Of a stretch of 4,579 nucleotides of DNA, positions 3,513 through 4,579 are shown piece after piece. Source of the stretch: a virus (Duplodnaviria > Heunggongvirae > Uroviricota > Caudoviricetes); IMG/VR virus record IMGVR_UViG_2675903578_000008. One strand, written 5' to 3'. A model generated the notes under the pieces. The model was not told the DNA's origin, made no database searches, and saw only the letters and a program-made list of their open reading frames with translations. How positions within the stretch are numbered: the stretch's first letter is position 1; every line of letters begins with the position of its first letter. The position numbers and the translations under genes are program-made.

Positions 3513-3902
3513 CGACCCGTGTCGACCGGGGCTTCGATCGACCTTCTGACGCGTGCTGTGATTATTTCGCTTTTTACATGGCGGCGTGCCGGGCGTGATG
3601 ATGCACCACGGATATTTGGATGGTGGGGGGATACCTGGCCTGCGGTTCAGAATGATCGCACGGGGTCGCGTTTGTATCTGTTGCGACGCAGCAAGCTGAC
3701 AAATAAAACCCCGCAGCTTGCCAGAGATTATGTCCGTGAGGCGCTGGCGTGGATGGTGGAGGATGGTGTTGCTTCCCGTCTTGATATTAACGCTGTCCGG
3801 ACCGGGACAGACTCGCTGGCACTTGCCATTACCATTTACCAGCGTGACGGCAATATTCACAACATTATTTTTGATGATATCTGGAGTGAACTGAATGGCT
3901 GA
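3513..3902 (+). CDS. phage GP46-family baseplate protein (Mu V/gp46-like); 5' end hidden in the N run
   Basis: Visible translation ...IDLLTRAVIISLFTWRRAGRDDAPRIFGWWGDTWPAVQNDRTGSRLYLLRRSKLTNKTPQLARDYVREALAWMVEDGVASRLDINAVRTGTDSLALAITIYQRDGNIHNII contains the GP46-family hallmarks (SLFT.RRA, GWWGD, GSRL.LL.R.K.T). Stop TGA at 3900-3902 overlaps the next ATG (ATGGCTGA). Confidence 0.75.
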   Translation, partial: RPVSTGASIDLLTRAVIISLFTWRRAGRDDAPRIFGWWGDTWPAVQNDRTGSRLYLLRRSKLTNKTPQLARDYVREALAWMVEDGVASRLDINAVRTGTDSLALAITIYQRDGNIHNIIFDDIWSELNG

Positions 3903-4488
3903 CAGTCAGTTTTATCGCCCCGGCCTCCCGCAACTTATTTCTATGATCCGGAGCGATTTATTAACCCGCTTTGAGCAGGATACGCTGCTTCGTCGTATGG
4001 ATGCGGAAGTGTATGCCCGTGTACAGGCTGCAGCCGTACACACGTTGTACGGGTATATCGATTATCTTGCCAGAAATCTGTTACCGGACGTGTGTGATGA
4101 AGACTGGCTGTACCGGCACGCCAGAATCAAACGCTGCCCGCGAAAAGAAGCGGTGGCAGCCCGGGGATTTGTGCGCTGGGATGGCGTAGAGGGGACGCCG
4201 GTATTGCCAGCGGGAACGCAGATCCAGCGTGATAATCAGGTGACCTTTACCACGACGGCGACGGTGACCGCAGCCGATGGTCTTCTCCGGGTGCCTGTTG
4301 TGGCAGACGAACCGGGATCGGCGGGGAATACGGATGATGGTATTGCCATGCAACTGGGAACACCCGTCAGTGGTCTGCCGTCCACAGGGTACGCTGACAC
4401 CATTACAGACGGTGAAGATATTGAAAATCTGGAAATATGGCGTGCCCGCGTTATGGAACGTTATTACTACATTCCACAGGGGGGCGCA
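3895..4488 (+). pseudogene. baseplate J-like protein (Mu W/gp47-like), N-terminal 198 codons only; interrupted by IS1 at 4488/4489
   Basis: MADSQFYRPGLPQLISMIRSDLLTRFEQDTLLRRMDAEVYARVQAAAVHTLYGYIDYLARNLLPDVCDEDWLYRHARIKRCP... resembles the N-terminal region of Baseplate_J-family proteins. The native frame runs straight into IS1 sequence at 4489 and ends at an IS1-encoded stop (4567-4569), adding 26 foreign residues. Intact homologs are substantially longer (from memory). Confidence 0.8.
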
Positions 4489-4511
4489 GGTAATGACTCC
4501 AACTTATTGAT
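4489..4511 (-). repeat. IS1 terminal inverted repeat (IRR, 23 bp)
   Basis: ggtaatgactccaacttattgat at 4489-4511. Confidence 0.8.
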
Positions 4512-4579
4512 AGTGTTTTATGTTCAGATAATGCCCGATGACTTTGTCATGCAGCTCCACCGATTTTGAGAACGACAGC
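4504..4579 (-). CDS. insB: IS1 transposase InsB, C-terminal fragment on the minus strand (5' end beyond the window edge)
   Basis: Reverse-complement mirror of the left-end InsB tail; minus-strand stop TAA at 4504-4506. Confidence 0.85.
   Translation of the reverse strand, partial: LSFSKSVELHDKVIGHYLNIKHYQ

Follow-up and report, generated by a model that had tools for sequence, protein, structure and literature searches.

We found that the window, the whole 4,579-base stretch of DNA that was analysed, very probably belongs to a phiP27-like prophage remnant with a Mu-type tail in Shigella sonnei and spans the segment between two independent IS1 insertions, the right-hand one being a simple insertion into a gp47-like baseplate gene. 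The window corresponds to the stretch between two oppositely oriented IS1 ends, and the genes in between are all encoded on the + strand (Table 1). It was 100% identical to locus L002 (GCA_965230885.1) at all unmasked bases. The two N runs, at 376-653 and 3333-3512, comprise 278 and 180 bases, while the true lengths in L002 are 240 and 245 bases; consequently, none of the loci examined is reproduced exactly by the window, and neither length nor reading frame is preserved across the Ns. Two further ORFs, at 90..1961 (623 aa) and 3018..3902 (294 aa), were dismissed as artefacts created by translating across the Ns; both resolve into separate genes in the complete genomes. In these genomes, the DNA-circularisation gene is called with 463 aa, the gp45-like gene, whose remainder is masked by the second N run in the window, is a separate gene of 177 aa, and GP46 is a separate gene of 136 aa. 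The baseplate hub contained the Pfam domains GpP-like_1st, Gp44-like_2nd, NMB1110_3rd and GpP_4th.

Table 1. Features located in the 4,579-base window.
Feature	Position	Strand	Basis or remark
Left-hand IS1, 3' end (insB end and terminal repeat 81-103)	1..103	+	100% identity
CGTTAAAAC, right-hand copy of the 9-bp target duplication of the left IS1	104..112		
Low-GC 160-aa ORF, 3' part from codon 34	104..375	+	End masked by N run 376-653
DNA-circularisation protein (Mu gp43-like)	654..1961	+	Pfam DNA_circ_N, 119 bits; first codons masked by Ns
Baseplate hub (Mu gp44 / P2 gpD-like), 360 aa	1958..3040	+	Pfam and alignment with L001 and phiP27
Baseplate spike/assembly protein V (Mu gp45-like), N-terminal part	3018..3332	+	Pfam Phage_Mu_Gp45, 90.5 bits
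GP46 (baseplate wedge W-like), C-terminal part	3513..3902	+	Pfam GP46, 111 bits; start in N run
Baseplate J / gp47-like gene, codons 1-198 of 360	3895..4488	+	Pfam Baseplate_J
GGGGGCGCA, left-hand copy of the 9-bp target duplication of the right IS1	4480..4488		
Right-hand IS1, first 91 bases (terminal repeat 4489-4511)	4489..4579	-	91/91 identity
Chimeric ORF, 224 aa (198 gp47 and 26 IS1-coded residues)	3895..4569	+	

Examination of the gp47-like gene revealed that only its 5' part is contiguous in the window. Positions 3895-4488 comprise 594 nt, corresponding to 198 intact codons of phage sequence, and from 4489 onwards the DNA is that of IS1 (GGTAATGACTCCAACTTATTGAT...), beginning with the insB-distal 23-bp terminal repeat (4489-4511). 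The frame runs on into the element for 26 IS1-coded residues, GNDSNLLIVFYVQIMPDDFVMQLHRF, and ends at a stop codon at 4567-4569. The initial annotation, which was made from the letters of the window, had described this junction, and all of its coordinates were exact. Against the Pfam family Baseplate_J (PF04865; gathering cut-off of 21.1 bits), the window product scored 87.5 bits and covered only profile positions 2-137 of 255, compared with 185.3 bits and positions 2-255 for an intact homologue of 360 aa. The uninterrupted homologues, WP_000785589.1 from E. coli FDAARGOS_944 (locus L001) and L52 of phage phiP27, are both 360 aa long, and at the DNA level window positions 3895-4489 matched the beginning of the intact E. 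coli gene with 99.8% identity. The cut after residue 198 of 360 leaves the N-terminal 55% contiguous and severs 45% of the protein, and the middle and C-terminal domain of the family were absent from the window ORF. Because this ORF ends at gp47 residue 198 of 360, it is a gene fragment, i.e., a pseudogene, and the proposal that IS1 truncates the baseplate J gene was confirmed, the truncation falling at codon 198 of 360.

Public assemblies were searched for the exact 224-aa chimeric protein, with 226 blocks indexed and 26 contigs read, and a look-up of the window gp44 protein yielded 4 further loci, including CP000038.1. The 14 long contigs with the junction that were examined (L002-L011 and L013-L016) included HE616528.1 and CP000038.1, which are the genomes of S. 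sonnei 53G (lineage II) and Ss046 (lineage III), respectively (PMC5447701). All 10 of the distinct places shown revealed the same arrangement past the chimeric ORF: an IS1 with InsB and InsA on the - strand, an ORF of 131-137 aa with a Baseplate_J_C domain, a Phage_Mu_Gp48 gene, and then a fibre-sized ORF, a Caudo_TAP fibre-assembly gene, a phage_tail_N fibre gene and a DUF4376 gene. The downstream order was identical in the 4 further loci, Ss046 among them. Past the tail genes, the tmRNA gene ssrA followed by smpB was present in most places.

The initial annotation had held that IS1 replaces the distal tail genes, and had contrasted this with a simple insertion, in which the 3' part of the gene and a matching target-site duplication would lie immediately beyond the element. 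The latter arrangement was the one found: in 14 of 14 long contigs, the gp47 3' part and the matching 9-bp duplication were located directly past a complete IS1, which indicated a simple insertion rather than loss of the distal module. The claim of replacement thus did not hold, as the gp47 remainder, gp48 and the fibre and fibre-assembly genes were all present on the far side of the right-hand IS1, in relatives identical over the window. We infer this arrangement from those other genomes, not from observation of the source isolate; copies of IS1 often recombine with one another in Shigella, and an individual isolate could therefore differ from the genomes examined. The junction was absent from complete E. 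coli genomes, in which 50 genomes carried the gp47 5' part and all matches ended at query base 595 (4489), and an exact-match scan of the GTDB representative genomes did not find the 40-base junction.

The right-hand element showed the features of a complete IS1. It was 768 bp long in the 14 loci (767 bp in one assembly) and contained both terminal repeats, which are imperfect 23-bp inverted repeats (GGTGATGCTGCCAACTTACTGAT / GGTAATGACTCCAACTTATTGAT), with Zn_ribbon_InsA/HTH_Tnp_IS1 and DDE_Tnp_IS1 genes, corresponding to InsA and InsB, on the - strand inside the element. Over 4489-4579, the window and the terminal part of full-length 768-bp IS1 copies from S. sonnei genomes agreed at 91 of 91 bases, which excludes a chance match. 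The 9-bp target duplication GGGGGCGCA was found on both sides of the IS1 in all 14 loci and as a single copy in the uninterrupted gene; IS1 typically leaves a duplication of this length. In 53G, the site reads ...ccacag GGGGGCGCA / IS1 / GGGGGCGCA gaccctgattatg... (continuing with gaccctg), and the uninterrupted E. coli gene reads ...ccacag GGGGGCGCA gaccctgattatg...; the filled site is thus GGGGGCGCA-GGTAATGACTCC and the empty site CACAGGGGGGCGCAGACCCTG.

When the IS1 and one duplicate were deleted in silico, an ORF of 360 aa was restored in 9 of the 14 loci. The restored gp47 was identical to the uninterrupted E. coli copy at 359 of 360 residues and to phiP27 L52 at 350 of 360. The other five loci carried indels in the gp47 3' part, which were of 1 base in four assemblies and of 11 bases in CP151357.1, at about 11363-11869 in L003, L004, L006 and L011 and at 13365-13883 in L013; one of these five assemblies is the one with the 767-bp IS1. 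These indels may represent genuine additional decay or homopolymer errors of long-read sequencing.

We also analysed the left-hand IS1, which was 768 bp long with its transposase on the + strand and with CGTTAAAAC duplicated on both sides. Positions 1-103 of the window matched the terminal 103 bases of the complete 768-bp copies in L002 and L005 with 100% identity; the duplicate on the other side of the element was seen in L002, L005, L007 and L010, and the same 9 bp occur once in the uninterrupted L001, at 5185. The element sits at codon 34 of a 160-codon ORF located between the tape-measure and DNA-circularisation genes, and window positions 104-375 were identical at 272 of 272 bases to L001 5185-5456, a stretch annotated there as part of the hypothetical protein WP_000594909.1. 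The GC content of this split ORF was 37-39% (39% for 104..375) versus 55% in the tail genes. No Pfam match was found for the 95-aa fragment or the full 160 aa, and the ORF was not found in phiP27 but was present in the E. coli relative L001. With no Pfam family and no counterpart in phiP27, the ORF looks like a moron gene. Its N-terminus was hydrophobic and lipoprotein-like (…MTVAILTSCCAQA…). The two IS1 copies are flanked by separate duplications, and the intervening DNA is collinear with the uninterrupted prophage, so the elements represent two independent insertions.

Other explanations of the right-hand junction were weighed against these results. A product of about 198 aa might be a natural short form of Baseplate_J whose end the IS1 merely adjoins, and the frame that stays intact up to the junction is all that would speak for it. 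The initial annotation had allowed for intact homologues ending near residue 198, but phiP27 L52 and WP_000785589.1 extend to residue 360, the Pfam profile is broken off at position 137 of 255, and the missing 162 residues are encoded right past the IS1, so this explanation can be dismissed. It is also very unlikely that the IS1 removed the gp47 3' part and the distal tail genes, whether by an adjacent deletion or by IS1-IS1 recombination. Adjacent deletions mediated by IS1 are generally known, and in the window codon 198 is followed by IS1 only; however, in every long contig examined, a full-length IS1 with a perfect 9-bp duplication was followed directly by the remainder of gp47 and by the distal module in its entirety. 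A deletion would have cost the second copy of the duplication, and the window is sequence-identical to genomes in which the distal module is intact.

The pairing of the two elements raised a different explanation, namely that the inverted IS1 pair and the 4.4-kb segment form a composite transposon like Tn1681, or that the segment was inverted by IS1-IS1 recombination. The window is bounded by two inverted IS1 copies with like ends facing inward, and it resembles Tn9 and Tn1681 in having two IS1 copies around a segment of a few kb, in the inverted orientation of Tn1681. Composite transposition, however, is expected to leave one duplication outside the pair, and inversion would part the duplicate pairs, but each IS1 was found to be individually duplicated, with CGTTAAAAC at the left and GGGGGCGCA at the right. 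Both interrupted genes were also collinear with the uninterrupted prophage of L001 and with phiP27. Unlike in Tn9 and Tn1681, the IS1 pair of the window comes from separate insertions with their own duplications and encloses DNA collinear with the parent prophage, which makes either form of this explanation extremely unlikely. Finally, we regard it as very improbable that disruption of the baseplate and the adjoining low-GC ORF by the two convergent IS1 copies was selected in the S. sonnei ancestor instead of being neutral decay, for instance because it silenced a tailocin (a tail-like particle) or a costly prophage product, or that the inverted IS1 pair makes an invertible or mobilisable cassette of gp43-gp47'.

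According to the preferred reading, a simple insertion, the right-hand IS1 would have transposed into codon 198/199 of the 360-codon gp47-like gene and duplicated GGGGGCGCA. This would have split gp47 in two, with a 5' piece that reads 26 codons into the IS1 and a 3' piece past the 768-bp element, and nothing would have been deleted, as the gp48, tail-fibre and fibre-assembly genes would still lie downstream. Judging from knowledge of the baseplate J proteins (Mu gp47, P2 gpJ and T4 gp6), the split would be expected to inactivate the wedge protein. Polarity of IS1 on downstream genes is known, and the insertion probably also lowers expression of the downstream late genes (gp48 and fibre).

Comparison with known phages revealed that phiP27, an Stx2e phage (NC_003356.1), is the closest complete phage. 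It showed 97.0% nucleotide identity over 95% of window positions 654-4488 (3,835 bases), and the tail modules (L44-L57 in phiP27) were collinear, with a common order of sheath, tube, chaperone, tape measure, DNA circularisation, hub, V, GP46, J, gp48 and fibres. In contrast to phiP27, which is a complete phage of 42.6 kb without IS elements, the S. sonnei copy was without head and early genes, lay beside ssrA/smpB, and contained the extra low-GC ORF and two IS1s. The gp47-like gene belongs with the baseplate wedge family of Mu gp47, P2 gpJ and T4 gp6, as it matches PF04865 and has GP46 (W-like) and gp48 (gpI-like) as neighbours. This is the synteny of the Mu/P2 type, with GP46 (W) upstream in the window and, in the complete genomes, Phage_Mu_Gp48 (I) directly behind the remainder of gp47. 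Unlike in the intact Mu gp47, P2 gpJ and T4 gp6, the remainder of the window gene is shifted by 777 bp (the IS1 and the duplicate). The related tail-module remnant in E. coli FDAARGOS_944, which carries the uninterrupted gp47, was located beside a frameshifted ipaHe effector gene and near zinT (L001 14459-16100), a chromosomal context that differs from that in S. sonnei, and this strain, although filed as E. coli, resembles an EIEC/Shigella-type organism.

The element is a defective prophage remnant, as initially proposed: IS1 copies interrupt two of its genes, little of the head module is left and gp44 is frameshifted. In the 3 kb seen upstream of the sheath gene, there were only an IS3-family element, a 120-aa fragment of a Peptidase_S78 prohead protease and an IS4-family element, the fragment sitting between the two elements. 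The head, lysis, replication and lysogeny genes of a complete phage were absent from these 3 kb and could lie farther off. The remnant adjoins ssrA and smpB and is bracketed by IS4-family elements (L002 16090-16452; L014 1-3000 and 20151-21083). The prophage may have become defective before or after the gp47 insertion, through other IS insertions and loss of the head/early region.

Some minor differences were present in the gp44 gene. The A run at 2993-2999 has seven bases in the window versus eight in E. coli L001 and phiP27, and this 1-base deletion is a frameshift through which the protein ends in MLRRISDERVFSS instead of the six residues NVEEDF and a 23-base overlap with gp45 arises. The A7 run was present in 3 of 3 S. 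sonnei sequences aligned (the window, L004 and L005), and the extended stop position was common to every S. sonnei locus. Additionally, an in-frame GCTGGT hexanucleotide repeat at 2506-2523 (the terminal GCTGGG unit counted) was variable in copy number; compared with 53G, E. coli L001 and phiP27, the window had one additional unit and L004 had two, giving products of 358, 360 and 362 aa. This repeat is a small VNTR within the species.

The end of the window within an IS1 also bears on how the junction is read. The window ends 91 bases into the element and therefore cannot show anything past it. The chimeric protein was found on contigs of <=2-5 kb in 186 of 226 blocks, and the gp44 variant in 1443 of 1509, as would be expected of draft assemblies that break at both IS1 copies. 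The window end is thus most likely a break of a short-read assembly at a multicopy repeat, and the missing distal genes would then reflect the assembly boundary, not biology.

IS1 has expanded in S. sonnei, where the spread of IS elements, IS1 foremost, is the chief source of pseudogenes, and approximately 50% of the pseudogenes of the species arose directly from IS insertion (PMC7373316). The gp47 insertion showed no substantial difference from the S. sonnei IS1 pseudogenes described by Hawkey et al. 2020 (PMC7373316), as it likewise involves a 768-bp IS1 with 23-bp repeats and a 9-bp duplication within a coding sequence, and it is one case among hundreds of IS copies. The insertion is already known, being annotated in the long-published reference genomes Ss046 and 53G, and is part of the routine IS-driven decay in Shigella. 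Its importance therefore lies mainly in correct annotation, as one of the many pseudogenes made by IS1 in S. sonnei. A contig that ends inside a multicopy IS carries no information on the far side, so that replacement by IS1 cannot be inferred from it, and target-site duplications in complete relatives tell a simple insertion from a deletion. As the insertion is common to the lineage II (53G) and lineage III (Ss046) genomes, it could be a minor lineage marker.
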